Assembly: GCA_043816965.1 (NCBI GenBank)
Contig: JBDRHK010000042.1
Location: forward strand, 1 to 59,317
Source: Candidatus Iainarchaeum sp.
Lineage (GTDB): Archaea > Iainarchaeota > Iainarchaeia > Iainarchaeales > JAFCCJ01
Length of the DNA: 59,317 bases
Direction: 5' to 3'
In this document: positions 1,722 through 28,572 of the stretch, piece after piece
How positions within the stretch are numbered: the first letter of the stretch is position 1
Layout of the letters: each line of letters starts with the position of its first letter
The notes under the pieces: model-generated
Seen by the model: only the letters and a program-made list of their open reading frames with translations
What the model was told of the DNA's origin: nothing
Database searches by the model: none
Program-made: the position numbers and the translations under genes

Positions 1722-1976
1722 CTATTCAGTCACTTTGAAAACTTCGGAATTCTGTTTCACCGGGCTACTGACTTTCATCCCGATTGCCTGGCCTTTCTTC
1801 GCGGACTTGATTTTCTCGTGCTCTATCTGCATGGAACCCACTGTTTGCTCCAGGGCATCGCCATCCTTCTCAATGCTGATTTTGTCCCCGTCCTTAAGAT
1901 TGCCTGAGAGTTCAATTACAGCCACGCCTATCTTATCATAATAGTGCAAAATTTTACCAACCAAATCTTTCCCCAT
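1722..1976 (-). CDS. small EF-Tu domain-II-like beta-barrel protein ('translation elongation factor-like protein')
   Basis: 84 aa. 'GKILHYYDKIGVAVIELSGNLKDGDKI...G.MQIEHEKI..AKKGQAIGMKV' matches the short stand-alone EF-Tu-D2-like family by recognition. Confidence 0.5.
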   Translation of the reverse strand: MGKDLVGKILHYYDKIGVAVIELSGNLKDGDKISIEKDGDALEQTVGSMQIEHEKIKSAKKGQAIGMKVSSPVKQNSEVFKVTE

Positions 1977-2055: not shown

Positions 2056-4143
2056 ATGTGCGGAATTGTCGGTGTATTCAAAAACCCTGATTCCAGGGAG
2101 CTGGTGGAAAAGGGCCTGGAAATCCTTAAGGCAAGGGGAATTGATGGAAAGGGCATTGAGGAGTGCGGGAAGGGCTCTTTTATGGGCCACAGGCTGCATT
2201 CTGTTGTGGGAAAAGTGAAACAGCCCCTAAAGGGAAGCGAGAATGGAATTCTCGCCGCAAATTCAGAAATTTACAACTGGAAGGAACTTGCGGTAAAATA
2301 TGGAATCCCTGTGAAAAATGATTCTGAACTGCTTCTGAAATTGATTGAGAAAAAAGGTGCCGGGAATTTTGAGGAAATTTTGAACATGCTTGACGGGGTT
2401 TATGCCTTTGCATACTGCGACGGGAAAAGGGTTTTTGTTGCAAGGGATTTGCTGGGGGTTAAGCCACTATGGATTTCGACAGAAAAGGGCTTTGCCTTTG
2501 CCTCTGAAAGGAAGGCATTGTGGGAAATGGGTTTTCCACAGCCGCTTGAACTTGAGCCAAGGCAGATTGCGGTTTACGATTTGGAAAGTGGCAAAATTAA
2601 ATTCATTGACCGGGAATTCTTTTCAATAACCCCGGAAATTAAGGATAAGAAAGAGAGAATTAAGGAAAATCTGAAAGAACTTATTGCTGATGCGGTGAAA
2701 AAAAGAATTGCTGGCAAGAAGATGGGCCTGCTTTTCTCAGGCGGGGTTGATTCCTCTTTGCTGGCGCTGGTCCTCAAAGAAATGGGCGTGGATTTTACCT
2801 GCTACACTGCCGCACTTGAGGAGAAGGGCCTGAAAATGGCGAAGGATCTTGATTTTGCAGAAAGGGCTGCGAAGGAAATGGGCCTGAAACTAAAAGTTGT
2901 GAAGGTTTCACTTAAGGAAGTTGAAGCACTGCTTCCTGAAATCGTGAATCTTTTGGAGAGCAGCAATGTTGTTACGGTGGGAGTTGGGCTTACAATGTAT
3001 CTTGCCGCAAGGCAGGCGAAGGAAGATGGGGCGAAAGTAATATTTTCCGGGATGGGGAGTGATGATTTGTTTGCCGGTTACAACAGGTTTGTTGAGGGGG
3101 GTGAAATCAACAAGGACTGCCTTTCTTACATGAGAAGAATCCATTCCGTTGATTTGTACAGGGATGATATTGCCACAATGGCGAATTCTGTTGAACTAAG
3201 GCTTCCATATTTGGATAGGGCGTTAGTGGATTATTCCTTGAGAATCCCTGGAAAATTTAAAATGAAGGATGGAAATAGAAAATTGATTCTAAGGGAGCTG
3301 GCAAGTGAGATGGGGATGAAAAATGAGTTTGCTTACAGGAAAAAGACTGCCGCACAGTATGGGAGCAGCATTGATAAGGCGCTGTCAAAACTTGCGAAGA
3401 AGAAGGGCATGAAATCCAAATCATATTATTTGGATTCGCTTTTCAAGAGGAAGATTTTCAGGCTTGGGGCATTGGTAAGTGGAGGAAAGGACAGCATTTA
3501 TGCCATGCAGATTATGCATGAACATAATTACTCAATTGAATGCATTATTTCCGTGAAAAGCAGGAATCCTGATTCATTTATGTTTCACACCCCTGCAATA
3601 GAACTTGTTGAGATGCAGGCAGAGGCTATGGGAATTCCCCTGATTTCAGTTGAAAGTGAGGGGGAGAAGGAAAGGGAGCTTGAAGATTTGAAAAAGGCAG
3701 TGGAGAAGGCAAAGGAAAAATTCAATCTGGATGGGATTGTCACAGGCGCCATTTTCTCCAACTATCAACGAACAAGGATTGAGGAAATAGCAACAAAATC
3801 CGGGCTGAAAATTTACGCCCCGCTCTGGCACATGAACCAGGAAATTCTTATGCGGGAACTCGTAAAAGAGGGTTTTGAATTTGTGATAACTGCTATTGCC
3901 TCAAAAGGTTTGGGTGAGGAATGGCTGGGAAAAAGAATTGGTGGGGGAGAGGTTGATAAAATTTTAGAACTGGCGAAAAAGGAGGGCTTTAATCCTGCAG
4001 GGGAAGGTGGGGAATTTGAGACATTGGTTTTGGATGCGCCTATGTTCAAAAAGAGAATTGAGCTTGTTAATGTTGAAAAGAATATGGGGAATGAATTAAG
4101 CGGAAGATTGGTTGTGAAAAAGGCTAGGCTTGTTGAAAAATAG
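2056..4143 (+). CDS. fusion protein: class-II glutamine amidotransferase/asparagine-synthetase-like (res 1 to ~467) + Dph6/MJ0570-type diphthine-ammonia ligase domain (res ~468-695)
   Basis: N-terminal MCGIVG (Ntn Cys2), 'NSEIYN', 'NDSELLL', and PP-loop 'LLFSGGVDSSLLA'. The second half has PP-loop 'LVSGGKDSIYA' and 'GEGGEFETLVLD', characteristic of the PF01902/Dph6 family. Confidence 0.8.
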   Translation: MCGIVGVFKNPDSRELVEKGLEILKARGIDGKGIEECGKGSFMGHRLHSVVGKVKQPLKGSENGILAANSEIYNWKELAVKYGIPVKNDSELLLKLIEKKGAGNFEEILNMLDGVYAFAYCDGKRVFVARDLLGVKPLWISTEKGFAFASERKALWEMGFPQPLELEPRQIAVYDLESGKIKFIDREFFSITPEIKDKKERIKENLKELIADAVKKRIAGKKMGLLFSGGVDSSLLALVLKEMGVDFTCYTAALEEKGLKMAKDLDFAERAAKEMGLKLKVVKVSLKEVEALLPEIVNLLESSNVVTVGVGLTMYLAARQAKEDGAKVIFSGMGSDDLFAGYNRFVEGGEINKDCLSYMRRIHSVDLYRDDIATMANSVELRLPYLDRALVDYSLRIPGKFKMKDGNRKLILRELASEMGMKNEFAYRKKTAAQYGSSIDKALSKLAKKKGMKSKSYYLDSLFKRKIFRLGALVSGGKDSIYAMQIMHEHNYSIECIISVKSRNPDSFMFHTPAIELVEMQAEAMGIPLISVESEGEKERELEDLKKAVEKAKEKFNLDGIVTGAIFSNYQRTRIEEIATKSGLKIYAPLWHMNQEILMRELVKEGFEFVITAIASKGLGEEWLGKRIGGGEVDKILELAKKEGFNPAGEGGEFETLVLDAPMFKKRIELVNVEKNMGNELSGRLVVKKARLVEK

Positions 4144-6178: not shown

Positions 6179-6583
6179 TTACTTCAGCCTTTTTGCCATC
6201 TTCACAACAGCCTCAACACTTCTTCTCGCATATCCGTCAATGCGGTTTGATGCCTGTAGTCTGGATACACCTGGCCCGGTGATTCCTAAGCCAACCGGCT
6301 TATTGAATTCAACTGCCAAATCCATTATTTTCCTTGCTGCGTGCTGCGCAACCAGTTCATCGTGGCCTGTTTCGCCCTCAATTACGGCTCCCAAAGTGAC
6401 AACACCATCGATTTCCTTTTGGGAAAGCAGGTTCTTCACAGCAAGCGGCATATCAAATGCCCCAGGCACGGAAATGACCTTTGAAACATCTGCCCCCAAA
6501 AAGATGGCGTGTTCCTTTGCCCTTTGCAGCATCATCTGCGTTATATCATAGTTGAATTCACTTACAACAAATCCCAGTTTCAT
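6179..6583 (-). CDS. ribH: 6,7-dimethyl-8-ribityllumazine synthase
   Basis: 134 aa with 'GFVVSEFN', '[10 protein letters not shown]' and '[13 protein letters not shown]'. Lies in an operon with riboflavin synthase and kinase. Confidence 0.85.
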
Positions 6584-6619
6584 CTCATTCCTCCTTTTTA
6601 TTTCATTTATTTAATAATA

Positions 6620-7742
<1,123 letters not shown>

Positions 7743-7808
7743 AATAACTGAGGGATAAGAACTTACTTAAAAATGTTATGATTAACAAAAATGAGTAGCA
7801 AAACAATT

Positions 7809-8885
7809 CTACTTCTGCACATGGATTGTCTGCGTCGGGAATGCGAAATTAATCTTTGCGCCGTCAAATTTCTTCTTTATTTCGGAATTAATTTCGTGCA
7901 TCACGTAAAACTTCCTCTCGTCATCGGTTATGTAATAGGTTACCCACAAATTCAGGGAGAAGTCCTTGAAATCATTGAAAACAGTCCTGGGCTCGTCCTT
8001 GCAATCAGGGTGCTTGTTGACAACTTCCCTGACAATCTTCACGGCCTGCTCAATCTTTTTGGGGTCTGTGTCATAGGTGACGCCGAGGTTCATTGTCACC
8101 CTTCTTGCGGATTCTGAGGAGATGTTCTTTATAACATCCCTTGCAACCTTAGAGTTTGGCATTGTATTTAGGCGACCATCAAAATCTCTGATCCTTGTAA
8201 ACCTTAAGCCAACCTGCTCAACCGTTCCAGTAACTCCTGAAACTTCAACAATATCTCCCACAATAAAGGGCTTGCTTGTGAAAATGCTGATTCCCCCGAA
8301 CATGTCGGCGATAGTTTCCTGCGCGGCAAATGCCAAAGCTAATCCCCCAATCCCCAAACCGGCAATCATTGCCGTGACATCATAGCCGAAATTGCTGAGG
8401 ATGACGATAAATGATATCGCCACAATTGCCGCCTTGCTGAGCTTGCTCACTATGGGAACTATCTGGTCATCCAGCCTTGATTTTGTTTTTGAAATTGCGG
8501 GAATGACAAAGTGGTTAATGATCCCGTCAACAAGCTTGATTAAATACCATGCGATGTCAAGAATTAAAATTGTCCCTATAACATCGAAAATAAAGCTCCT
8601 GATTCCCTCGTCAGTAATTGTCAGGAAATTTGTGCCTATCATCATGCCGACAACCATTGAGAATATTATGAACGGCCCCTCGGTAACCTCCAGCAGCATA
8701 TCATCGAATTCTGACTTGGTCCTTTTGGCGAGCTTGCTGCCCAGCTTCTTTATGAAGAAATATATGATTTTTCCTGCGATTACGAAAGCGATTAATGTAA
8801 TAAAGAAGAGAGCGTATTGCTCAATGCTTGAGCCAAAATAAACCCCTGAGATAAATCCTTCGAGGCCAGGAATCTGCAGAATCAT
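7809..8885 (-). CDS. MscS-family mechanosensitive channel
   Basis: Several N-terminal TM helices followed by 'FGGISIFTSKPFIVGDIVEVSGVTGTVEQVGLRFTRIRDFDGR'. Confidence 0.8.
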   Translation of the reverse strand: MILQIPGLEGFISGVYFGSSIEQYALFFITLIAFVIAGKIIYFFIKKLGSKLAKRTKSEFDDMLLEVTEGPFIIFSMVVGMMIGTNFLTITDEGIRSFIFDVIGTILILDIAWYLIKLVDGIINHFVIPAISKTKSRLDDQIVPIVSKLSKAAIVAISFIVILSNFGYDVTAMIAGLGIGGLALAFAAQETIADMFGGISIFTSKPFIVGDIVEVSGVTGTVEQVGLRFTRIRDFDGRLNTMPNSKVARDVIKNISSESARRVTMNLGVTYDTDPKKIEQAVKIVREVVNKHPDCKDEPRTVFNDFKDFSLNLWVTYYITDDERKFYVMHEINSEIKKKFDGAKINFAFPTQTIHVQK

Positions 8886-9403: not shown

Positions 9404-10864
9404 TTGGAAGGATGGACGCTGATTAAATCATATTTCCATAACAGGAATTTCGCCCAGATGGAGATTGACTCATTCAACCAGTTTGTGGACAAGAAATTGT
9501 ATGAGATTGTTGATGAGAACAGGACCATTTCCCCAAAAATTGAGGAAGTTAAGATTGAGCTTGATAAAATTGAACTTTTAAAGCCAAGGATTATTGAGGC
9601 TGATGGAAGCCCGAGAACTAATTTTTTCCCGATGGAGGCAAGGATAAGAAACAGGACCTATGCCGCACCAATTTTCCTCACAATGAAACTCCTGAGAAGG
9701 GATGTCGAGCAGGACCTGAAGAAGGCATATATCGGGGATTTGCCAATAATGCTTAAATCCAACAGATGCTGGCTTGAAGGAAAGAACAGTGATGAACTTA
9801 TTGAAATGGGCGAGGATCCAAAGGACTTTGGGGGTTATTTCGTTATCAATGGTTCAGAAAAGGCACTGATGACTCAGGAGGTTCTTGCGTCAGACAGGGT
9901 TTTGGTTTCTGAAATGCAGGACAAGATTATTGCAGAGGTAATTTCAACAAAAGGCGCGTTCAAGGGAAGGGTAAGGATAATGAGAAGCCCTGATGGAACA
10001 TTGAATGTTACATTCCCCTCCTCCCCGAGGAAGCTGAAACTCTTTGTGCTTCTCAAGGCATTGGGCCTGAAAAGCAACAAGGAAATCATGAATGCATTTA
10101 CCGAGGAGCCTGAAATAAAAAACGATATTCTCATTAACCTCGAAAATCTGCTGATAAGGACTGAGGAAGAGGCACTGGATAAAATTGGTAAGTTCGTTGC
10201 GCCAGGGCAGGTCGAGGAGTACAGGCTGAGAAGGGCACAGGAAGTTATTGACGCATTCCTGCTTCCGCACATAGGCCAGGAAAGGAAGGACAGGCTGGCA
10301 AAGGCATACTATTTGGTTATGATGGCAACTAAGGCCATTGAAAGGGCATATGGCCTGAGGGAAGAGGATGACAAGGACCATTATGCAAACAAGAGGCTGG
10401 AGTTAAGCGGAAAGCTTATGGAGCATCTTTTCAGGTACAGTTTCAAATATTTCATTAAGGATTTGAAATTCCAGATTGACAGGACTGTCACAAGGAGAAG
10501 AAAGCTGAATATTTCAACTATTGTGAGGCCAGGGGCAGTTACTGAAAGGATTAGGTTTGCCATGAGCACAGGAAACTGGATAGGAAGAGCAACAGGAGTG
10601 AGCAAGTTTATGGACAGGGTGAACTATTTGAGCCCGCTTACTGATTTGAGGAAAGTTAAAAGCCCTTTGGATAAGAACAGGGAGCTTTATGAGGCAAGGG
10701 ATGTTCATGGAACCCACTGGGGAAGGTTATGCGCTATTGAAACCCCTGACGGGCCACAATGTGGATTGGTGAAAAACCTTGCCCTGCTAGCAGAAGTAAC
10801 TACTGAAGGCGATGACAAGCCGATTGAAAAGGCACTGGAAGAGATGGGAGTGAAACTTAAATAG
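9404..10864 (+). CDS. rpoB2: RNA polymerase subunit B'' (N-terminal half of split RpoB)
   Basis: Strong RpoB N-terminal similarity ('GYFVINGSEKAL', 'LCAIETPDGPQCGLVKNLA'). TTG start at 9404. Confidence 0.95.
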   Translation: MEGWTLIKSYFHNRNFAQMEIDSFNQFVDKKLYEIVDENRTISPKIEEVKIELDKIELLKPRIIEADGSPRTNFFPMEARIRNRTYAAPIFLTMKLLRRDVEQDLKKAYIGDLPIMLKSNRCWLEGKNSDELIEMGEDPKDFGGYFVINGSEKALMTQEVLASDRVLVSEMQDKIIAEVISTKGAFKGRVRIMRSPDGTLNVTFPSSPRKLKLFVLLKALGLKSNKEIMNAFTEEPEIKNDILINLENLLIRTEEEALDKIGKFVAPGQVEEYRLRRAQEVIDAFLLPHIGQERKDRLAKAYYLVMMATKAIERAYGLREEDDKDHYANKRLELSGKLMEHLFRYSFKYFIKDLKFQIDRTVTRRRKLNISTIVRPGAVTERIRFAMSTGNWIGRATGVSKFMDRVNYLSPLTDLRKVKSPLDKNRELYEARDVHGTHWGRLCAIETPDGPQCGLVKNLALLAEVTTEGDDKPIEKALEEMGVKLK

Positions 10865-10872
10865 GTGAAATT

Positions 10873-12687
10873 ATGGTTTCTAAGGCAAAGGTTTACATCA
10901 ACGGAAGATTGATTGGGTTCCATCCCAATCCTGAAAAGCTGACACAGGAGCTTATTGCAAGGAGAAGGCTAAATAAGCTGCAAAAGGAAACAAACATCGC
11001 ATTCCATGCTGACACAAACGAGGTTTACATAAATAGTGATGCGGGAAGGGTCCAGAGGCCGCTTATTGTTGTTGAAAACGGAAAATCAAAGGTAACTGAA
11101 GAGCATGTAAAGGCACTAAAAGAGGGCAGGATTTCCTGGAAGGATTTATTTGACAAGGGAGTTGTTGAATATCTGGATGCCGAGGAAGAGGAAAATGCAT
11201 TTATTGCGCTTGACGAGGGTGAACTCACAAAGGAGCACACCCATTTGGAAATTAACCCAATCGGAATTCTTTCTGTTATTTCCTCAATGATTCCATATCT
11301 CCAGCACAACATGGCGGGAAAGGCCCTTCACGGGGCAAAGATGTTCAAGCAGGCGCAGGGAATTCCTGCTGTAAATTACAATCTGAGAACAGATACCGAA
11401 TCCTATTTGCTTTATTATCCTGAAAAGAACCTCGTGAAAACCAAAACCATGGACATAATTGAGCTTAACAAAAGGCCGCAGAGCCAGAACTTTGTCGTTG
11501 CAATAATGCCTTTCCAGGGCTTCAACATTCTTGATGCCGTGGTGTTCAATGAAGGCGCGGTGCAGAGAGGATTGGGTAAAAGCGCCTATTTCAGGACTTA
11601 TGAAAGTGTGGAAAACCGCTATCCAGGCGGGCAGATGGACAGGTTTGAGATTCCTGAAGAGGACACAGTCGGTCATCTGGGGGCAGAAACTTACAGCAAG
11701 TTAGGCGAAGACGGGCTTATTGGAATTGGGGCACAGGTCAAAGAAAGGGATGTCATTGTAGGGAGAACCTCCCCCCCAAGATTTTTGGAGGAGATCAGCG
11801 AATTTGGCGTGGTTAAGGAGAAGAGAAGGGAAAGCTCGATTACAATTAGAAAAGGCAAAACAGGCACTGTTGACAGGGTTATTATAACAGAATCCGAATC
11901 AGGAAACAAGCTGGTTAAGATTAAGGTAAGGAGTGAAATGACCCCTGCAATCGGGGACAAGTTCAGTTCAAGGCACGGGCAAAAGGGAGTGATTGGGGCA
12001 ATTATCCCTGAGGAAGATATGCCATTTACAGCAGAGGGAATAAAGCCAGACATGCTTCTGAACCCGCACTCCATTCCATCAAGAATGACAATTGGCCATT
12101 TGATTGAGATGCTTGCGGGAAAGGCAGGCTCATTGAAGGGAATGGAAATTGACGGGAGCCCATTTGATGAAATGAGCAAGGAATCTCTGGGGGGAATGCT
12201 CAGGGACAAGGGATTTCGAAGCGACGGCAATGAGACATTTTATGACGGCGTAACCGGGAAAAGAATTGAGGGAGAGATTTTCTCAGGGATTGTTTCATAC
12301 AGGAGGCTTTTCCACATGGTTGCCCACAAAATTCAGGCAAGGAGCAGGGGCCCTGTGCAGATACTTACAAGGCAGCCAACCGAGGGAAAGGAGAAGGAAG
12401 GCGGATTAAGGTTTGGTGAGATGGAAGGCGAGACACTTGTCGGGCATGGTGCGGCAATGCTTCTGCAGGAGAAATTTATCGAGGATTCGGATAAGGTTGT
12501 TGAGCTTGTGTGTGAGAAGTGCGGAGTAATTGCAATTAATGACCAAATAAGGAAAAAGAAATACTGCCAGATTTGTGACGGGGGCAAGGTATATCCTGTC
12601 GAGATGAGTTATGGATTTAAGTTGCTTCTTGATGAATTAAAGGCGCTGGGTGTTTACCCAAAACTGAACATAACGGATAAGGTGTAG
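10873..12687 (+). CDS. rpoB1: RNA polymerase subunit B'
   Basis: 'SSRHGQKGV', 'PSRMTIGHLIE', 'RSRGPVQILTRQPTEG', and a C-terminal Zn motif CEKCG...CQICD. Confidence 0.95.
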   Translation: MVSKAKVYINGRLIGFHPNPEKLTQELIARRRLNKLQKETNIAFHADTNEVYINSDAGRVQRPLIVVENGKSKVTEEHVKALKEGRISWKDLFDKGVVEYLDAEEEENAFIALDEGELTKEHTHLEINPIGILSVISSMIPYLQHNMAGKALHGAKMFKQAQGIPAVNYNLRTDTESYLLYYPEKNLVKTKTMDIIELNKRPQSQNFVVAIMPFQGFNILDAVVFNEGAVQRGLGKSAYFRTYESVENRYPGGQMDRFEIPEEDTVGHLGAETYSKLGEDGLIGIGAQVKERDVIVGRTSPPRFLEEISEFGVVKEKRRESSITIRKGKTGTVDRVIITESESGNKLVKIKVRSEMTPAIGDKFSSRHGQKGVIGAIIPEEDMPFTAEGIKPDMLLNPHSIPSRMTIGHLIEMLAGKAGSLKGMEIDGSPFDEMSKESLGGMLRDKGFRSDGNETFYDGVTGKRIEGEIFSGIVSYRRLFHMVAHKIQARSRGPVQILTRQPTEGKEKEGGLRFGEMEGETLVGHGAAMLLQEKFIEDSDKVVELVCEKCGVIAINDQIRKKKYCQICDGGKVYPVEMSYGFKLLLDELKALGVYPKLNITDKV

Positions 12688-18360: not shown

Positions 18361-21300
18361 ATGGCAAAAAGAGAGGATATTGTTAAACTGGCAGAAACCT
18401 TGATGGGCAACAGGGAAAACATAAGGAATATCGGGATTGTTGCGCATATAGACCATGGGAAATGTGTTTCAGGGAAAACAAACATTGTTTTGGCCAATGG
18501 CACTACTGTAAAAGCTAAGGCGCTCTTTGAATCTGCAGAAACAAACGGGAGAATTGCAGGGAAAACAGGCGATGAGGTTGTTTTTGATATAACTGGCCAG
18601 GGAATTAATGCGGTGAGCTTTAACAAGCAGTCCAAGGACATGGAATTCAGGACAATTTCCCATGCGTGGAAATTGAAAGCGACAGAACCGTTGATTAAAT
18701 TAACGCTTTCAAACGGCCAGGAAATCAGCACAACGCCGGAACACAAATATTTGTGTGCAGGCGATGACGGAACTGTTACTGAAAAGCAGGCAAAGGATGT
18801 GATGGAAAAGGATTTCATTTTATGTCCGAGGCATTTGCCTGCGGAAACACTGGAATTAGAACAGTTCAAAACAGAATTCCTGGATGCCCTTTCAAAAGAC
18901 CCTGGATTTATTGTTAATCTTGATGAACGAAACGCCCTTGAATTGAAGAGGGCCATTCTCTCTTACGGGATGGAAAAACTGAGGAAAGGCATAAGTTCAC
19001 CATATAAAAGCAAATCATTCTACCACTGTGTTTACAACGGGCGATACAGGTTAAATGATTTCAGGAAAATCGCAGGGATTCTAAGATTTAATGCCTTTGA
19101 AAAGATAGCCAAGATAAACTACAGGAAAACATTGAATCAGCACGACCATTCATCGGTCAGTTTAAATCTCCCCAAAACAGAATCTGGGATTATCGAGTTA
19201 TTCTATCTGCTTGGACTTATTTGGGGCGATGGCGGAAAATGTGGAAAGGACATAAGAATAACAAACGAGGACAGGCAAATAATTGAGTCGGTTAAGAGAG
19301 TTTGCAGGGAAGTTTTGGGAACAAAGGCAAAGGAAAGAAAATATGCGGGAAAGGCCACGAGAATAGATTTGAGTGCAGGCATTACTTTTACGAGAATTCT
19401 TGAGCAATTCTTTGAATTTCCATTGAAAAATAAATCCCATTCAATAACCATCCCGAAAATAATCCGGAAAATGCCAAACCATTTCTTAAAAGCGTTCATT
19501 CAGGGTTATTTTGATGCCGATGGTGGCATTGAAATGAGCCGGAGAGCGGCAAGCATTTCAAGCGCATCAAAGCGAATGATTGAAGACCTTTACTCCGCCC
19601 TTTTAAGGTTTGGGTGCATTGCAACAATCTATGGCAAAAAAAACACCCTTTTTGTTTCATCCTCAAACCTAAAACCGTTCAGCGAGAAAGTTGGATTCAG
19701 GCTCGAGAGAAAGCAAATTTCACTGGAAAAAATTCTTTCTCTGTCGGACTCCCCGAACAGAAACACTGATTTGCTTCCGATAAAAAGCATTCTGTTGAAG
19801 CAGACCCGAAAAACCCTGGGGATTCCGCTCAATAAGTTTGCAAAAACACAGGAGGCAATTGAGCTTGGATTGCAGAACATTTATTTGAAAAACTTTTTAG
19901 ATTATGTTAAAACGATTTATTCGTTTATAGGAAATCCAAAAATAAAAAACCAGGAAGCTTGGGATGAACTCCAGGCAATTGAGAAAATATTCTTTAACTG
20001 CTTTACTGCGCGGGTTGAAAAAAAGGGCACCTGCATTGAAGAATTTGTTTACGATTTTACTGTGGAAGGCAACCATAATTTTGTGGGCAATGGGGCGCTT
20101 ATACACAACACCACCCTCACAGACAATCTGGTTGCTGCCGCAGGCCTGATTTCCAAAGAACTGGCAGGAAAGCAGCAGTTCATGGACTATTATGAATTGG
20201 AGCAGGCAAGGGGAATTACCATCAATTCCGCAAATATTTCCCTTGTGCACAAGGTTAAGGGAATTGAATATCTGATTAACATCATCGACACACCAGGCCA
20301 TGTTGATTTTGGCGGGGAAGTTATAAGGGCAATGAGGGCCGTTGACGGGGTTATGCTTGTTGTTGATGCGGTAGAAGGTGTCATGCCTCAGACGGAAACT
20401 GTTGTAAGGCAGGCGCTGAAAGAGAAAGTAAAACCCATGCTTTTCATAAACACGGTTGACAGGCTGGTTAATGAACTGCAGGTTACTGAGAAGGAAATGC
20501 AGGAGAGATTTGTGAAGACCATTGCCCAGGTTAATAATCTGATTAAGAAGAACGTTCCCGAGGAATTTGTTGATGAGTGGAAAGTCAATGCAATGAACGG
20601 AAGCGTTGGATTTGGCTCCGCCTACAATAACTGGGCTGTTTCTGTTCCACAGAAGGAGGAAACAGGCATTGGATTTAAGGAAGTTTACGAATACTGCAAG
20701 CAGGAAAAGCAGAAGGATCTTGCGAAGAAAAGCCCACTGCACGAGACAGTTATCAAAATGATTGTTCAGCACATGCCAAACCCAATGGTCTCCCAGAAAT
20801 ACAGGATTCCCAAAATCTGGAGCGGAGATATGGAAAGTGAAGAGGGAAAGTCTATGGGGAGTTGTGACCCAAATGGCGTGTTTACAATGATGGTCAATGA
20901 TGTTTCTGTCGACGCGCATGCGGGAGATATTGCCACTGGAAGGATTTATTCAGGAACTGTGAAAAAGGGCTCAAAGCTCAGATTAATCGGGAGCCAGAAG
21001 GAGGTCACAATACAGTCTGTTGCGATCTATATGGGCCCTGAAAGGATTACGGTTAGTGAGATCTCTGCAGGAAATATTGGCGCCCTTGTTGGCACAAGGG
21101 ATATTTATGCAGGGGAAACAATTTCCGAAAAAGAGATTAAGGAATTTGAATCATTCTTTTCAACTGCAGAACCTGTTATGACCATCTCTGTTGAGGCAAA
21201 AAGCACCAAGGATTTGCCAAAGCTTATTGAGGTTATAAGGCAGATAACAAAAGAGGATCCCAATATAAAGGCAAGCATTAACCAGGAAACAGGAGAACAT

Positions 21301-22200
21301 TTGTTGAGCGGGATGGGGGAGCTGCATCTTGAGGTCACACAATACCGGATCGAGGTTGACCACAAAATACCAATAACTGTTTCCCCGCCAATTGTTGTTT
21401 ACCATGAGGCAATAAACAAGAGCTCACCTACACTTGAATCCAAGAGCCCAAACAGGCACAACAAGCTTAAGATGCGTGTTGAGCCAATTCCTGCTGAAAC
21501 CCTGAACAACCTTATTGAGTCAAGGCTGAATGTGAAAATCAGGCCTAAGGACAAGGATATTGTTGTGAAATTGCAGGAAATCGGGTTTGACAATGAAAGG
21601 GCAAAAAAAATCTGGTGTGTTCACAATAACAATGTGTTAGTTGACGCCACCAGGGGAATACAGGCGCTGCAGGAAATTAAGGAACTGGTTATACAGGGAT
21701 TTAAGGACGCGATGGATGCTGGTCCGCTGGCAAAGGAGAAGAGCGAAGGGATTCAGGTAATTCTCGAGGATGCAACACTCCATGAGGATGCCATCCACAG
21801 GGGTCCTGCACAACTGCTTCCCACAACAACCAGGGGAATTTATGCCTGCATGCTGAGCGCTGACGCCGTCCTGCATGAGCCAAAGCAGACACTTACAATT
21901 AACGTGCCTGAGGACTTCATGGGTTCGGTTTCAAAGGAATTGGGGTCAAGGAGAACACAGATAAGTGAAATGAGGCAGGAGGGAGATACCTCAATAATTA
22001 TAGGAAGGGCTCCTGTAAAGGAATTGATTGGTTTTAGTGCGGCAATTAGGAGCGCAACTCAAGGTAGGGCAATCTGGACCGCGGAATATGCAGGATATGA
22101 ACTCCTGCCAAGGGAATTGCAGGAGAAGGTCATTAAGGAAGTCAGAACCAGAAAGGGGATGGATCCACAGGTCAAACCTGCGGCATTTTTCCTTGAATAG
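18361..22200 (+). CDS. fusA: elongation factor 2 (aEF-2) precursor containing a 549-aa intein
   Basis: 'NIGIVAHIDHGK' ... 'TTLTDNLVAAAG', 'IDTPGHVDF', and diphthamide-site 'HEDAIHRGPAQ'. The exteins sum to 730 aa. Confidence 0.95.
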   Translation: MAKREDIVKLAETLMGNRENIRNIGIVAHIDHGKCVSGKTNIVLANGTTVKAKALFESAETNGRIAGKTGDEVVFDITGQGINAVSFNKQSKDMEFRTISHAWKLKATEPLIKLTLSNGQEISTTPEHKYLCAGDDGTVTEKQAKDVMEKDFILCPRHLPAETLELEQFKTEFLDALSKDPGFIVNLDERNALELKRAILSYGMEKLRKGISSPYKSKSFYHCVYNGRYRLNDFRKIAGILRFNAFEKIAKINYRKTLNQHDHSSVSLNLPKTESGIIELFYLLGLIWGDGGKCGKDIRITNEDRQIIESVKRVCREVLGTKAKERKYAGKATRIDLSAGITFTRILEQFFEFPLKNKSHSITIPKIIRKMPNHFLKAFIQGYFDADGGIEMSRRAASISSASKRMIEDLYSALLRFGCIATIYGKKNTLFVSSSNLKPFSEKVGFRLERKQISLEKILSLSDSPNRNTDLLPIKSILLKQTRKTLGIPLNKFAKTQEAIELGLQNIYLKNFLDYVKTIYSFIGNPKIKNQEAWDELQAIEKIFFNCFTARVEKKGTCIEEFVYDFTVEGNHNFVGNGALIHNTTLTDNLVAAAGLISKELAGKQQFMDYYELEQARGITINSANISLVHKVKGIEYLINIIDTPGHVDFGGEVIRAMRAVDGVMLVVDAVEGVMPQTETVVRQALKEKVKPMLFINTVDRLVNELQVTEKEMQERFVKTIAQVNNLIKKNVPEEFVDEWKVNAMNGSVGFGSAYNNWAVSVPQKEETGIGFKEVYEYCKQEKQKDLAKKSPLHETVIKMIVQHMPNPMVSQKYRIPKIWSGDMESEEGKSMGSCDPNGVFTMMVNDVSVDAHAGDIATGRIYSGTVKKGSKLRLIGSQKEVTIQSVAIYMGPERITVSEISAGNIGALVGTRDIYAGETISEKEIKEFESFFSTAEPVMTISVEAKSTKDLPKLIEVIRQITKEDPNIKASINQETGEHLLSGMGELHLEVTQYRIEVDHKIPITVSPPIVVYHEAINKSSPTLESKSPNRHNKLKMRVEPIPAETLNNLIESRLNVKIRPKDKDIVVKLQEIGFDNERAKKIWCVHNNNVLVDATRGIQALQEIKELVIQGFKDAMDAGPLAKEKSEGIQVILEDATLHEDAIHRGPAQLLPTTTRGIYACMLSADAVLHEPKQTLTINVPEDFMGSVSKELGSRRTQISEMRQEGDTSIIIGRAPVKELIGFSAAIRSATQGRAIWTAEYAGYELLPRELQEKVIKEVRTRKGMDPQVKPAAFFLE
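18463..20109 (+). mobile_element. intein with LAGLIDADG homing-endonuclease domain inserted in the EF-2 P-loop (GK|C...HN|T)
   Basis: Starts with Cys after AHIDHGK and has block B 'TPEHKYL'. DOD motifs are 'LLGLIWGDGG' and 'FIQGYFDADGG'. It ends 'VGNGALIHN' followed by Thr(+1), which restores GKTTLTD. Confidence 0.9.
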
Positions 22201-24081: not shown

Positions 24082-27000
24082 ATGAAATTTAGAATTATTG
24101 CCCTGTTGTTACTTTTCCTTTTGTCTGCCACAGTGCATGCGCAGGAACGGCAGATTAACTGCGCGGCCGATGACTGGGTTGATGGGGTTGGAAATGGTGA
24201 TTGTGTAAAGTGGGTAAGCGGCCCAGAGGATGTGGCACAGGCAAGCATATCTGTGCTTAACGACCCATCTGATGCAAGGAGGGTTGCTAATGTGCTTAGC
24301 TATGGGCAGGTGAAGTATTATTCAATACCTTTTGGAGGGCTGCAGGCAAGGTATAAATGCCAGGGCTCGGACGATAGAACAACTTTGACTTATGGCGGGC
24401 TTAATGAGACTGTGCTTGACGGAACAATTGATGTATCAACAACAACTCCTGAGAGAAATCCTTCTAGGGATGAATTTGTCTGCACTGTGATTGCAACTTA
24501 CGGCGCCACGAACTATGTCCAGCCGGCCAAACTTTACGAAAAAATATTTACCGATTATTACGTCCTGAACTGCGCAGCGGATTCTGACTGTTTTACAATT
24601 CCGGGGCGGGCCTGTGACAACTCCTACAGGGACCCGGGCAATGAACTTTTGAGCCCTTTGCAATGGCACTGCGTCGATAACGGAACCCCGAGCTTTGTCA
24701 CCCCATTTGTGGAATATCCTGCAGTGGCAAATATCGGGGAAAGTTATGACATAACCGCTTACTACACTGACACTCCTGCACTTGACCCTGTATGGGTGAT
24801 TGTCAATGATTGTGACACTGTTCACTGTATGGAATTTCCCTACTGCGAAAGCGAATACTCTGTCACAAGCCCGGTTAGCTGCCCATTTACCCCCCAGGAT
24901 GGGGAGCAGGGCATAAAAACTTTGTATGTTTTTGTATGTGACGACCAGGATGAATGTTCAGAATATCAGGAAATTTCAATCAGGATAAATTACGTCCCTG
25001 ATGTATCACTCATCGCTTCAGAGGAAACAACCGTCTGGCCTAATTGGGATACCACTTTTACGCCGACTTTTTCTGATATTGACGGGACTATTGCAAATGT
25101 TTCGCTTGATTTTGGTGACGGGGGCCCGCCTGAAATAGGTTTTAATTCTGATGAAGAAATATACCATGCGTATCCACCAAACACTACAGAAACTGCAATC
25201 CCTTATGACGCCATCCTCTCTGTAACCGATAATGATGGTGAAACATCAACATTTACACTACCCATCACCGCAAGCCCTGAGGGGAATTTGCTCCCTGTCC
25301 CGGTATTATCAGTGGCACCTGCTGAAATAACCAGGGAGGGGATTGTCACCTCCACTTACAACTGCACAGACCCTGATGACCCTGACCAGCATTTTGATGA
25401 GGGGATTGATGATTGTTGGATGAATTATGGCTACTGGGACAATATGCCAGATGAGGATGGGGACATCCTTAATGGGATAAGCGGAAGTTTCCCTTACACA
25501 TATATGAATTATACAAATGTACACGCCACAAGAACCAATATTTTAAGGGCATATGACCGTGCAGATGTTATGGTAGAGGTGACAGAAACAATCAATGTAC
25601 TATCAGAGCCGAGATTGAGGATTGTTACTGACACCACGCCATATCGTAGTGAGGATATTTGGGGAAACACCTGGACAGATGGTTTGGGGATTGAGCATGA
25701 AATTCCGACGTTTATCGCTGGAACAACAGTCCATTTTATGGTAGAGGCAATTAATGGGGATTTAAGTAATTACACAAATTTTGATTGGGATTGGGCAAGA
25801 CATGATATTAACCCAAACCCACTTACCGGTTTTTTTGGGGTAGAGGGCAATCCAGAATGCTATTTTTCAGTGGACGATGGAGCCAGCTCAATGGACATTT
25901 ACTGCACCGGAACCTGGTATAAGAGAATAACTTTAAGGGCTCTGGACACCACAAACAATCAGGAAACCCAGACATCATTTATTTTCTACAGTGACACAGG
26001 TCCAGGGCAACATCCATTAACACAGTTCATACCCTATATCCAACAGATTAAGAGCGGATTCAACGGCCCTAACTATGATGCAAGCTGCCAAAGATGGATG
26101 GGAGTAGTTCCTTTAAGTTTAAACTATGATCCTGGGGAAATGCTATTTGAATGCGAGATACACTGGCGTCAGGGACCTAACCATCAACTAACCATTGTTA
26201 ACAACCCCCCGACATATGAATCATTTGCGGAAGCCACATTACTAACTGGGCCTGAAAGCCCATATACAAACTATGGGGACAGAATAAGTTTAGAAAGACC
26301 GTACATAGATGCAGACAATTTCAGCGGCCATGGCAGCAGCCATGGAATTTCGCTCAATATTCTTCCCCAGAATAATCTCCTTCCAAGGGCAAATATCCTT
26401 AGCACTGTTTCCAGCGCACTGCTTATGGAGGATGTGGAAATTATTGGCCAATGCTCTGATTATGATGGGGCTGGAAATGATTTTGATGCCCAGGGAAATA
26501 TGTTTCTCCTGCCCCCTGAATTCTGCCAGATTGATTTTAGGGAGGGAGATGGGTCTGAGAATATGGATCTTGTTATTGAGGACCTTGGATTGGCGGAATG
26601 GATTATTGAATCACCTTGTTCCGATACATACACTATAACTGGGGAGAGAATTGAATTTAATGCAAGCAACAATTGCCTCAGATCTCGTACAGGTAGTGCG
26701 GCAGCTGCCTCAGGGATCCTGACAACCAAGCTTGTAAAAGATGTCAGCCATATTGGAGACAATGATTTCGACATATCTGTTGAGATTATTCCTTCAATAG
26801 ATAATATTCTTAACCACAATTGGTTTCAATATTATCAGGGGATAATACTAGAGGATAATGATAGAAGATTTATTTCGCTGGATGCTTTTCTTTACACCCT
26901 TTCAGCATATGATGATACCTATCGCAGGGACACCTACCATGAAATGGTCTATTATAACCTTTACGAAAACATAACCTATCCAAGAGAGGGACAGGTAAAT

Positions 27001-28572
27001 TCTGAAAGAATAATCCCATATCCAAATAACCGGGGCACTTACTTTAAATTGTCCCGGAGGGGAACTGTTTTGGCCGCATACTATTCCGATGATGGGAGTA
27101 ATTACAAGATACTCGGCTCAAGGGACTTGCGTGATTTAGACGATGCATTGGGCAACCCATTCCAAATCAACCGGGCAGGGATTTTTTTTGGGAACAGTTC
27201 CCCTGCAGGTGGCTTTACCGCAAGCTTTGACAATTTTGAATTCAATGTATACCGATACAGCAAAATCCATCAGTTCAGCAGCGTAGGAAGTTTTGATATT
27301 TTATTAAGTGCAAATGATGGAACAGATATAGCAACAGATACTCTAACAATAGATATTGGTCTTGAAAATAATACTCCCCCTGTGCCAGAAATTATCGAGC
27401 CTGCAGGCCTTGATGCGATAGCTGCATTTAACACCGAAAGTGATACTGAAATTACAATCAGCGGTACTGCTACTGACAGCGGGGCGAATGAAGGAATTGC
27501 AAGAATTTATTGGGAAACTCCGGTAATGCCTGCCGCAGTATGTGATTTGATTACTGATGCACCAACCAATCCAGATTGTATATTGGATGGCGATGCAATT
27601 AATTGTTCTAACTCACAGACAGATGTTCAAATAAATTCAACAATAATCTGCACCTATGCTGACGGCGACCCTGACTTTAGGGAATTTAATGTTATTTTAT
27701 ATGCGACTGATGAAAGGGGGGGAACAATTGCGTCTGCACCTGCAAGGATAAGGCTAGGGCTTGTTAGTGAGGAGAATGTTGTAAGAATAATGCCCAACGG
27801 AATAACCCCTGCCAATCCAAATCAGGTTAGCAGTACTGTTACATTTGAATTCTTCTGTCCCTTGGGGGATTGTATTGTCACCGGTGTTTGCCTTGCCGCT
27901 TGTGATGAACCTGGCAATTTCACTGAAACAATAGGCCAGGGAAACAGGATTATTTCAAAGGATTTTGATTCAATCAACGGCTTTGATTTCCAAATTACTA
28001 TTTCAGGGGAGCAACTTAATACCGACGGGAGTGTCTCAAATGAAAACGACAGCGAGACAATCCATTACTCAGCCAGCAGTTCTGAGGGGGGCGGCTCATC
28101 ATATCCCAATGATATTCTGGAAATTAGCAGCGCAAGGCTCGGGGAAAATGCCTATAGCTTGGATGATGATTTGGAACTTACAATTTATGTCAGGAATTAT
28201 TCGATTACCACTTATGAACAAACATATTCTGTTGAGCTGAAGGATATGGTTACAGGGAGGATTGCATGGTCAAATATTTATGATGCCTACGAATTCTTAG
28301 CGGCGTCAGAAACAGCTGTCCCTGTTACCATTGACCTTAATGATGAAACGAATGGGGTTGAAAAGGGAAATTACAGGATAATAATTGTGGTTACGCCTGT
28401 GACTGATGCAGGCAACACCGAATATTCTGCCAACAACAAATACTCAAAGCTTTCTGTAGCTATCCTTGAGCCCCAAAGGGCCATGTCTGTGCCAGAAATC
28501 CCGCCAATTTTCATACTGCTGGTACTGGTTTCGGTTTTGTTCGTAATTAACCGGTTTAAAAATAAAGGATAA
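24082..28572 (+). CDS. 1496-aa acidic secreted multi-domain surface protein (Cys-rich N-region, PKD/Ig-like repeats, ConA-like lectin domain, CARDB-like domain, PEI-TM-basic C-terminus)
   Basis: Signal peptide MKFRIIALLLLFLLSATVHA. Has PKD signature 'LDFGDGG...YHAY...SVTDNDGE' and C-terminal 'VPEIPPIFILLVLVSVLFVINRFKNKG'. Confidence 0.85.
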   Translation: MKFRIIALLLLFLLSATVHAQERQINCAADDWVDGVGNGDCVKWVSGPEDVAQASISVLNDPSDARRVANVLSYGQVKYYSIPFGGLQARYKCQGSDDRTTLTYGGLNETVLDGTIDVSTTTPERNPSRDEFVCTVIATYGATNYVQPAKLYEKIFTDYYVLNCAADSDCFTIPGRACDNSYRDPGNELLSPLQWHCVDNGTPSFVTPFVEYPAVANIGESYDITAYYTDTPALDPVWVIVNDCDTVHCMEFPYCESEYSVTSPVSCPFTPQDGEQGIKTLYVFVCDDQDECSEYQEISIRINYVPDVSLIASEETTVWPNWDTTFTPTFSDIDGTIANVSLDFGDGGPPEIGFNSDEEIYHAYPPNTTETAIPYDAILSVTDNDGETSTFTLPITASPEGNLLPVPVLSVAPAEITREGIVTSTYNCTDPDDPDQHFDEGIDDCWMNYGYWDNMPDEDGDILNGISGSFPYTYMNYTNVHATRTNILRAYDRADVMVEVTETINVLSEPRLRIVTDTTPYRSEDIWGNTWTDGLGIEHEIPTFIAGTTVHFMVEAINGDLSNYTNFDWDWARHDINPNPLTGFFGVEGNPECYFSVDDGASSMDIYCTGTWYKRITLRALDTTNNQETQTSFIFYSDTGPGQHPLTQFIPYIQQIKSGFNGPNYDASCQRWMGVVPLSLNYDPGEMLFECEIHWRQGPNHQLTIVNNPPTYESFAEATLLTGPESPYTNYGDRISLERPYIDADNFSGHGSSHGISLNILPQNNLLPRANILSTVSSALLMEDVEIIGQCSDYDGAGNDFDAQGNMFLLPPEFCQIDFREGDGSENMDLVIEDLGLAEWIIESPCSDTYTITGERIEFNASNNCLRSRTGSAAAASGILTTKLVKDVSHIGDNDFDISVEIIPSIDNILNHNWFQYYQGIILEDNDRRFISLDAFLYTLSAYDDTYRRDTYHEMVYYNLYENITYPREGQVNSERIIPYPNNRGTYFKLSRRGTVLAAYYSDDGSNYKILGSRDLRDLDDALGNPFQINRAGIFFGNSSPAGGFTASFDNFEFNVYRYSKIHQFSSVGSFDILLSANDGTDIATDTLTIDIGLENNTPPVPEIIEPAGLDAIAAFNTESDTEITISGTATDSGANEGIARIYWETPVMPAAVCDLITDAPTNPDCILDGDAINCSNSQTDVQINSTIICTYADGDPDFREFNVILYATDERGGTIASAPARIRLGLVSEENVVRIMPNGITPANPNQVSSTVTFEFFCPLGDCIVTGVCLAACDEPGNFTETIGQGNRIISKDFDSINGFDFQITISGEQLNTDGSVSNENDSETIHYSASSSEGGGSSYPNDILEISSARLGENAYSLDDDLELTIYVRNYSITTYEQTYSVELKDMVTGRIAWSNIYDAYEFLAASETAVPVTIDLNDETNGVEKGNYRIIIVVTPVTDAGNTEYSANNKYSKLSVAILEPQRAMSVPEIPPIFILLVLVSVLFVINRFKNKG
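24994..25267 (+). other. PKD domain within the 1496-aa protein
   Basis: 'FSDIDGTIANVSLDFGDGGPPE...EIYHAY...YDAILSVTDNDGETSTFTLPI'. Confidence 0.7.
26599..27246 (+). other. concanavalin-A-like (DUF1349/LamG-like) lectin domain within the 1496-aa protein
   Basis: 'W.IESP...' ... 'GTYFKLSRRGTVLAAYYSDDGSNYKILGS' ... 'AGIFFGNSSPAGGFTASFDNFEF' follows the ConA-like/DUF1349 pattern by recognition. Confidence 0.5.

Follow-up and report, generated by a model that had tools for sequence, protein, structure and literature searches.

The window analyzed here is a stretch of 59,317 nt from Candidatus Iainarchaeum sp. (assembly GCA_043816965.1, contig JBDRHK010000042.1, positions 1-59,317 of the forward strand). 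One gene in this window, at positions 2056-4143 on the plus strand, encodes a protein of 695 amino acids (aa) that starts with MCGIVG, and in which a class-II (N-terminal nucleophile, Ntn) glutaminase, an AsnB-like PP-loop domain and an archaeal Dph6 (diphthine--ammonia ligase) domain follow one another, an identification that is very probably right given the agreement of family profiles with a structure model. The fusion gene is genuine, and it is a further member of an architecture that is already known and widespread. As the best explanation of the whole, we propose, with a probability of about 0.5, that the protein may act as a glutamine-dependent diphthamide synthetase.

Domain organization of the fusion protein

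The initial annotation had described a single open reading frame (ORF) composed of three modules, and both Pfam and NCBIfam recovered all three of them, with the curated thresholds passed; the extent of the ORF is further supported by the ORF list, by full-length orthologues and by an AlphaFold2 (AF2) model of the protein, which had a predicted local distance difference test (pLDDT) value of 86.3 and a predicted template modeling (pTM) score of 0.72. Residues 1-195 (2056-2640, +) were assigned to the glutaminase according to the families GATase_6 and GATase_7 (GATase_7 at residues 55-155, 1.4e-18; both together at residues 32-155) and the alignment to E. coli AsnB and human asparagine synthetase (ASNS). 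Residues 196-467 (2641-3456, +) were assigned to the AsnB-like PP-loop (adenylating) domain based on PF00733 (Asn_synthase, from residue 206, 4.5e-49), the alignments, the conservation pattern and the fold match to 1ct9. The last helices of this domain and the linker that follows occupy approximately residues 431-467 (3346-3456, +), a segment delimited by pLDDT and by the ends of standalone relatives. The remaining residues 468-695 (3457-4140, +) make up the Dph6 domain, as indicated by PF01902, TIGR03679, the matches to 2d13 and 3rjz and the fold, and the ORF closes with a stop codon at 4141-4143 (+). The domain boundary proposed earlier, near residue 468 (nt ~3457), is correct.

The C-terminal part scores as PF01902 ("Diphthamide synthase") at residues 471-691, with an E-value of 7.7e-69 and 232 bits against a threshold of 23.2. 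Among the NCBIfam models, the N-terminal part was slightly over the cut-off of TIGR01536 (asn_synth_AEB; 285.5 versus 267.1 bits), while the C-terminal part was far over that of TIGR03679 (Dph6_archaeal; 282.3 versus 197.3 bits). Translation confirmed each of the motifs quoted in the initial annotation at its coordinates, all on the plus strand: the Cys2 codon at 2059-2061, Asn69-Ser70-Glu71 (NSE) at 2260-2268, the first PP-loop SGGVDS at 2737-2754, the second PP-loop SGGKDS, belonging to Dph6, at 3478-3495, and the Dph6 motif EGGEFE at 4003-4020.

The fusion is genuine and widespread

A search of a 5.8-billion-protein collection returned more than 120 relatives of 669-723 aa that share all three Pfam families and align over 96-100% of the query with 49-84% identity; the assemblies behind them, from NCBI, JGI, ENA and Logan, are independent. 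All conservation counts for the family given below refer to an alignment of 120 relatives (P0001-P0120). When one genome per GTDB species was scanned, at least 590 confirmed matches were obtained, so that no fewer than 590 species, from DPANN archaea and Methanosarcinaceae, carry the fusion with the same domain order. Results at the level of loci rest on the best 80 of these genome matches (L004-L083), which are full length and belong to Woesearchaeota/Nanoarchaeota, Iainarchaeota and one Altiarchaeota bin, and also to cultured Methanosarcinaceae (Methanolobus bombayensis DSM 7082, M. psychrotolerans), to Methanomethylovorans and to an ANME-3 bin. The orthologues in Methanosarcinaceae (Methanolobus, Methanomethylovorans) are 45-47% identical to the window protein over the full length.

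Using our own ORF calling together with hidden Markov models (HMMs), both halves were found in one ORF in 80 of the 80 loci, and in none of these loci was a second Dph6 present within 6 kb of the fusion gene. An independent Logan contig, obtained from a groundwater metagenome run, covers positions 3321-3513 with zero differences and spans the junction near 3457, and the nearest relative (P0002, 84% identity) sits on a syntenic contig. Since the single ORF recurs in hundreds of independent assemblies, including all 80 loci, and an independent contig crosses the junction, a chimeric assembly or a frameshift, which the initial annotation had suggested looking for around nt 3400-3500, is excluded.

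The initial annotation knew of no description of the combination of glutamine amidotransferase, AsnB and Dph6, but the architecture is not new. A COG0367/AsnB domain located before DUF71 was reported in "a few Archaea" by de Crecy-Lagard et al. (2012, Biol Direct 7:32; PMC3541065), namely in Methanohalophilus mahii, Methanosalsum zhilinae and Cand. Nanosalinarum; the authors split this AsnB domain into a GAT-II subdomain and an Asn_Synthase_B_C PP-loop subdomain and already proposed glutamine as the NH3 source for the fused DUF71. The window protein agrees with these fusions in its three modules, in their order and in the proposed role of glutamine. In addition, hundreds of fusion proteins are already labelled "diphthine--ammonia ligase" by NCBI and JGI. 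Since 2012, the "few" archaea known to carry the fusion have grown to at least 590 species genomes. A reviewer of the 2012 paper raised the issue of which of the PP-loop domains consumes the ammonia and of what part the AsnB-like one plays (PMC3541065), and we found no later literature on this question or on a glutamine-dependent Dph6. The gain of the present analysis is a sharper, testable form of this question on the two PP-loop sites.

The C-terminal domain as an archaeal Dph6

Residues 471-692 align to PH1257 (2D13, 1.7e-54) and PF0828 (3RJZ, 5e-49) with 38-39% identity. When the AF2 model was compared with the structures of PF0828 and PH1257 using Foldseek, template modeling (TM) scores of 0.94-0.96 and root mean square deviations (rmsd) of 1.4-1.7 Å were obtained, and the SGGKDS and EGGEFE motifs proved invariant in the 120 relatives. 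The residues listed in 2012 as conserved in, and distinctive of, Dph6 orthologs and as facing EF-2 are S44, Y45, E78, Y103, Q104, A149, E183, E186 and E188 of PF0828 (PMC3541065). According to the 3rjz alignment, this signature maps to S507, F508, E541, Y570, Q571, S616, E650, E653 and E655 of the window protein, in which the only changes are Y to F and A to S, and most of the signature residues are invariant in the family. The TIGR03679 score above its cut-off, the PF01902 match, the signature residues and the PF0828/PH1257 fold together identify the C-terminal domain, on sequence and model grounds, as an archaeal Dph6, which agrees with the initial assignment.

Standalone archaeal Dph6 proteins (PF0828 = 3RJZ/3RK0/3RK1; PH1257 = 2D13; the MJ0570 family) share with the fusion the fold, the PP-loop, the EGGExE motif and the proposed EF-2-contact residues; unlike the fusion, they are about 225 aa long, have no amidotransferase and presumably work on free ammonia. 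Yeast Dph6 (YLR143W) has the same PF01902 catalytic domain and the same reaction as the Dph6 of the fusion, but it carries two C-terminal RidA/YjgF-like domains and not an N-terminal AsnB-like module (PMC3541065). A supplementary table of the 2012 paper lists one DUF71 homologue each in the complete genomes of M. mahii and M. zhilinae (PMC3541065), so that the fused protein is the only Dph6 candidate in these two organisms. The genes dph1/2 (often split), dph5 and dph6 have been reported in DPANN archaea (Narrowe et al. 2018; PMC6143161). Within the 59-kb window, which is too short to say much, neither dph2, dph5, a second Dph6 nor a second AsnB-like gene was found.

The presumed substrate is encoded in the same window by an intein-bearing aEF-2 gene at 18361-22200 (+; 1279 aa), which was recognized by Pfam EF-2 domains together with Intein_splicing and LAGLIDADG matches. 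Its translation reads HEDAIHRGPAQ, with the codon of the diphthamide His at 21796-21798, and the earlier statement that this EF-2 keeps the modified residue was thus borne out. Diphthamide on EF-2, the residue that diphtheria toxin attacks, is universal in eukaryotes and present in most archaea; to our knowledge, free ammonium is the only nitrogen source that has been demonstrated for the last step of its synthesis. The aEF-2 intein of approximately 540 aa, which the Intein_splicing match places at residues 44-583 and which contains a LAGLIDADG_3 endonuclease domain (376-445), sits in the GTP-binding domain, which picks up again at residue 584.

The glutaminase domain

To map individual residues, the window protein was aligned to E. 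coli AsnB and human ASNS, and the residue list of Zhu et al. (2019; PMC6748925) was used. In this mapping Cys1 corresponds to C2, E. coli Arg30 to R27, Arg-48/49 to R46 (codon 2191-2193, +), Asn74-Gly75-Glu76 to N69-S70-E71 and Asp96/98 to D89 (codon 2320-2322, +). C2, R27, N69, E71 and D89 are invariant in the 120 relatives, and the window protein additionally has R46. The domain-interface residue Glu-414 of the human enzyme, which has been termed absolutely conserved (Zhu et al. 2019; PMC6748925), maps to E380 (codon 3193-3195, +) and is also invariant in the family. Given this complete and invariant catalytic set, an active Ntn glutaminase is expected in the family, and the glutaminase of the window protein is expected to be competent. 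The position of the oxyanion-hole Gly75 (query position 70) is occupied by Cys in 110 of the 120 relatives, giving the motif "NCEIYN".

A middle domain distinct from canonical asparagine synthetases

In the fold comparison, the first two domains of the model matched 1CT9 with a TM score of 0.81 and an rmsd of 3.1 Å, and the two-domain fold is common to the fusion and to AsnB/human ASNS (1CT9, 6GQ3; TM 0.75-0.81). The fusion and these enzymes also have in common Cys1, the equivalents of Asn74/Glu76/Asp98, SGGxDS, D384/R387/K449 and the Glu-414 equivalent. Within the family, the SGGVDS PP-loop, S331-G332, D366 and R369 (3151-3162, +) and K430 (codon 3343-3345, +) are essentially invariant in the 120 relatives, with D366, R369 and K430 corresponding to E. 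coli D384, R387 and K449, and the window protein also keeps D336, the equivalent of E. coli D351/human D367.

The Glu of the "SGEGSDE" motif (E. coli E348, human Glu-364) is instead Met333 in the window protein (codon 3052-3054, +), where the motif reads SGMGSDD (3046-3066, +). At this position the 120 relatives have Leu in 117 cases and Met, Ile and Val in one case each, and an acidic residue in none. Known asparagine synthetases conserve both Glu-364 and Asp-367, and human ASNS is inactive in the variants E364A, E364Q and D367A (Zhu et al. 2019; PMC6748925). Other differences from AsnB/ASNS were found as well: in the E. coli "TTIR" loop, Gly takes the place of the Arg in 113 of 120 and Lys that of the preceding Thr in 118 of 120, about 90-100 residues of the canonical AsnB C-terminus are missing, and Arg-48/49 is mostly unconserved in the fusion family. 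Meyer et al. reportedly found in 2010 that the formation of beta-aspartyl-AMP requires a carboxylate at the position of E. coli Glu-348. The score for the AsnB equivalog NF006949 is 241, below its cut-off of 499. Because the catalytic Glu is replaced, the middle domain cannot be counted among the canonical asparagine synthetases, and a canonical AsnB is ruled out on this ground. The "AsnB-type" label of the initial annotation is imprecise and claims too much, as the required Glu is lacking, and the domain belongs to a separate AsnB-like clade that is also found without Dph6.

This clade became apparent in an exhaustive HMMER scan with residues 1-467 over 1.84 billion cluster representatives, which gave 1073 clusters at E <= 1e-30. 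None of the best 150 of these 1073 clusters has the canonical Glu, and the corresponding motif is SGLG(S/A)EE in 77 and SGQGADE in 21 of them, which indicates that the N-terminal two-thirds of the fusion represent a distinct AsnB-like clade. Judging from the alignments, the clade would be recognizable by Leu/Met at the position of the catalytic Glu, by the Lys/Gly swap of the "TTIR" loop and, in most cases, by the lack of Arg-48/49. Beta-lactam synthetase (BLS) and carbapenam synthetase (CPS) (1JGT, 1Q15), descendants of AsnB whose reaction has changed, also have the AsnB fold and were matched by both sequence and fold; these enzymes no longer possess the Cys1 glutaminase and close an amide intramolecularly, whereas the fusion family keeps an intact glutaminase. 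BLS and CPS have Tyr at the Glu-348 position. In metabolic reconstructions of DPANN archaea, the fusion and its standalone relatives should not be annotated as asparagine synthetase.

The middle domain was also considered as a decaying scaffold, a view ruled out by its conservation, the highest of the three domains (mean column identity 0.72 for the AsnB-like domain, 0.71 for Dph6 and 0.64 for the glutaminase), and by a ratio of nonsynonymous to synonymous substitutions (dN/dS) of 0.13, falling to 0.09 in the deviant stretch described below.

An outlier lineage within the family

Unlike the fusions reported in 2012, the window protein belongs to a Woesearchaeota/Nanoarchaeota-like lineage of DPANN archaea in which 13-14 of 86 near-invariant AsnB-like positions are deviant, 13 in the window protein and 14 in P0002. 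Across the family, the median number of such deviations in the AsnB-like domain is 1 and the 95th percentile is about 5. The same two proteins deviate at only 1 of 47 near-invariant positions in the glutaminase and at 4 of 61 in Dph6. The changes are P298N, I300L, K307T, L333M, E336D, E337D, H345F, E354D, G358Y, Y363H, E364S, R365V and N467I. Apart from N467I, they all surround the acceptor pocket (residues 298-365), and the two proteins share nearly all of them. The deviant stretch corresponds to window positions 2974-3150, the gene of the relative is located at 6550-8637 of its contig (L088), and the change at position 333 reads L333M/I.

The window gene and its 84%-identical relative were further compared on a codon alignment, in which both proteins are 695 aa long but differ by indels. 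The dN/dS was 0.14 in the glutaminase and 0.13 in both the AsnB-like domain and Dph6, with a value of 0.09 over residues 290-370. Purifying selection is therefore similar across the three domains (0.13-0.14), and the value of 0.09 over residues 290-370 indicates that the altered pocket is kept by selection and is not decaying.

Fused and standalone forms

Some of the matches lack one of the halves. The short matches P0121, P0122 and P0128 turned out to be fusions cut by contig ends, and genuine standalone AsnB-like genes with proper stops were found in P0124, P0132, P0138 (on a 1.07-Mb contig), P0154, P0178, P0273 and P0274. The standalone AsnB-like proteins end at an equivalent "...EYL..L" stretch, which lies in the linker region of the fusion. 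Over the AsnB-like region, their closest relatives are mostly fused proteins, in a sample that is biased towards fusions, and this suggests, as an indication, that several independent separations have occurred. Split halves lying adjacent to each other were not seen among the standalone loci examined, and the contexts of fused genes, standalone AsnB-like genes and standalone Dph6 genes were uninformative.

Proposed mechanism and alternative explanations

In the mechanism that we propose, the Dph6 domain would adenylate the diphthine carboxylate on the His of EF-2 and amidate it to diphthamide. Glutamine would be hydrolyzed at Cys2 of the Ntn glutaminase, the AsnB-like body would shield the released ammonia from solvent, and this glutamine-derived ammonia would be spent on the amidation of diphthine, making the last diphthamide step glutamine-dependent, whereas yeast Dph6 relies on free ammonium, as standalone archaeal Dph6 presumably does. 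The second adenylation site might couple ATP binding to glutaminase activity or ammonia delivery, or it might amidate a further carboxylate. The Dph6 domain begins about 37 residues past K430, the loop equivalent to K449, where it replaces the canonical AsnB C-terminal segment, and a start just after this loop would tether it near the end of the AsnB ammonia path. That glutamine-derived ammonia reaches diphthine is suggested because the covalent fusion recurs; the similar purifying selection on all three domains and the earlier publication of the idea (PMC3541065) also speak for it, and from sequence we judge this coupling of glutamine to Dph6 to have an even chance or slightly less. As the apparent sole Dph6 of hundreds of small-genome DPANN archaea and of cultivable Methanosarcinaceae, the fusion provides a direct way to test glutamine-dependent diphthamide synthesis via ammonia channelling.

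A number of observations weigh against the glutamine-dependent diphthamide synthetase, and most of them fit a different explanation, in which two independent enzymes are joined: the AsnB-like module would amidate its own, non-aspartate acceptor, Dph6 would use free ammonium, and the fusion would reflect co-expression, or a pathway or partner that the two have in common. Conservation of the middle domain exceeds that of the other two (80 positions at >=95%), and this domain retains the full ATP/PPi-binding set, looks like an enzyme with its own substrate and not like a conduit, and shows consistent changes of its acceptor-pocket residues (E to L, "TTIR" Arg to Gly, T to K). In several lineages of Woesearchaeota/Nanoarchaeota, at several points of the tree, the AsnB-like module persists on its own, and P0178 (Woesearchaeota) lies in the same MscS-UPF0147-prefoldin-L37ae neighborhood that surrounds the fused gene elsewhere. 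None of the seven standalone AsnB-like genes examined has dph6 as a neighbor. Standalone Dph6 (226-232 aa) is likewise common in Woesearchaeota/Nanoarchaeota and unlinked to AsnB-like genes, with no AsnB-like gene next to it in the two cases examined. The reviewer in 2012 raised the same question (PMC3541065). Two further points bear on the ammonia route itself. The linker (blocks 431-470) was modeled with lower confidence, at a pLDDT of 62-75, and the Arg that binds the glutamine carboxylate (human Arg-48; query position 46) is Cys in 64 of 120 relatives and Arg in only 9 of 120; Cys at positions 46 and 70 suggests an altered glutamine-site chemistry in the clade. What speaks against two independent enzymes is that the neighborhoods gave no acceptor candidate, just a DRG-type GTPase in 18/80 and a cytidylyltransferase-like gene in 16/80, and that the retention of a fusion across at least 590 species is usually the sign of a functional link; overall, we consider this explanation possible but rather unlikely. 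It is equally tentative that the clade's own adenylation site amidates a non-aspartate carboxylate, which might be diphthine itself or another, translation-related one. If this were true, DPANN archaea and Methanosarcinaceae would have a second, new amidation reaction, or diphthamide would be made by a two-site mechanism.

The wording of 2012 would imply a true bifunctional asparagine synthetase and Dph6, with the glutaminase feeding both sites. It is consistent with the AsnB fold, the retained equivalents of D351/D367, D384, R387 and K449, the TIGR01536 score marginally over the cut-off and the name "asparagine synthetase B" given to the standalone forms by their sources. These names are automatic, however, and with Met/Leu at the required Glu, Gly at the E. 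coli "TTIR" Arg, about half of the NF006949 cut-off score and the loss of the C-terminal residues, such an activity appears improbable. As PF01902 is not monofunctional (PMC3541065), the C-terminal domain could also be a DUF71 protein other than Dph6, such as one of the proposed B12-salvage branch, but TIGR03679 is well over its cut-off while PAB0415_fam (87.6 versus 250) and TTX_0299 (69.3 versus 250) fall far short, and the Dph6 signature residues are kept. Together with an artefactual ORF, against which the independent assemblies and the junction-crossing contig speak, this must be regarded as extremely improbable.

Gene neighborhood and other features of the window

Clustering of the neighbors over the 80 loci did not reveal a conserved operon with dph2, dph5 or an informative partner, and no pathway stood out as a likely source of a substrate. 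The DRG-type GTPase mentioned above (MMR_HSR1 + TGS) is encoded upstream on the same strand, and the cytidylyltransferase-like gene (138 aa, PF01467) directly adjoins the fusion (e.g. L046 2776-3189). Further recurrent neighbors are MscS and prefoldin/UPF0147, and PurQ/PurS in Methanosarcinales.

In the window, the rpoH-rpoB-rpoA/EF-2/EF-1alpha and ribosomal-protein clusters are located downstream of the fusion gene, which has glycosyltransferase and riboflavin genes beside it. The latter, about 2 kb downstream at 6179-7742 (-), encode lumazine synthase, an archaeal riboflavin synthase and a CTP-dependent riboflavin kinase with a helix-turn-helix (HTH) domain. Divergently upstream of the fusion gene, at 1722-1976 (-), is an ORF of 84 aa that weakly resembles the beta-barrels of EF-Tu domain 2 and Peptidase_U32_C, and its position is conserved in the contig of the closest relative (L088 6217-6471, -). 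Two separate genes, at 9404-10864 and 10873-12687 (+), encode the parts of a split RNA polymerase subunit B, with Rpb2 domains 1-3 in the first window gene and domains 4-7 in the second gene of the syntenic contig L088. Between the EF-1alpha region and the ribosomal-protein cluster, three large ORFs of 1496, 652 and 710 aa (24082-28572, 28603-30561 and 34603-36735, +) had no significant Pfam match, with sub-threshold PKD/RIP hits only. A gene for the tRNA-splicing ligase RtcB is located at 31030-33975 (+); its product of 981 aa carries an intein at residues 109-598, with the RtcB sequence picking up at about residue 593, and with aEF-2 there are thus two intein-bearing housekeeping genes within 13 kb.

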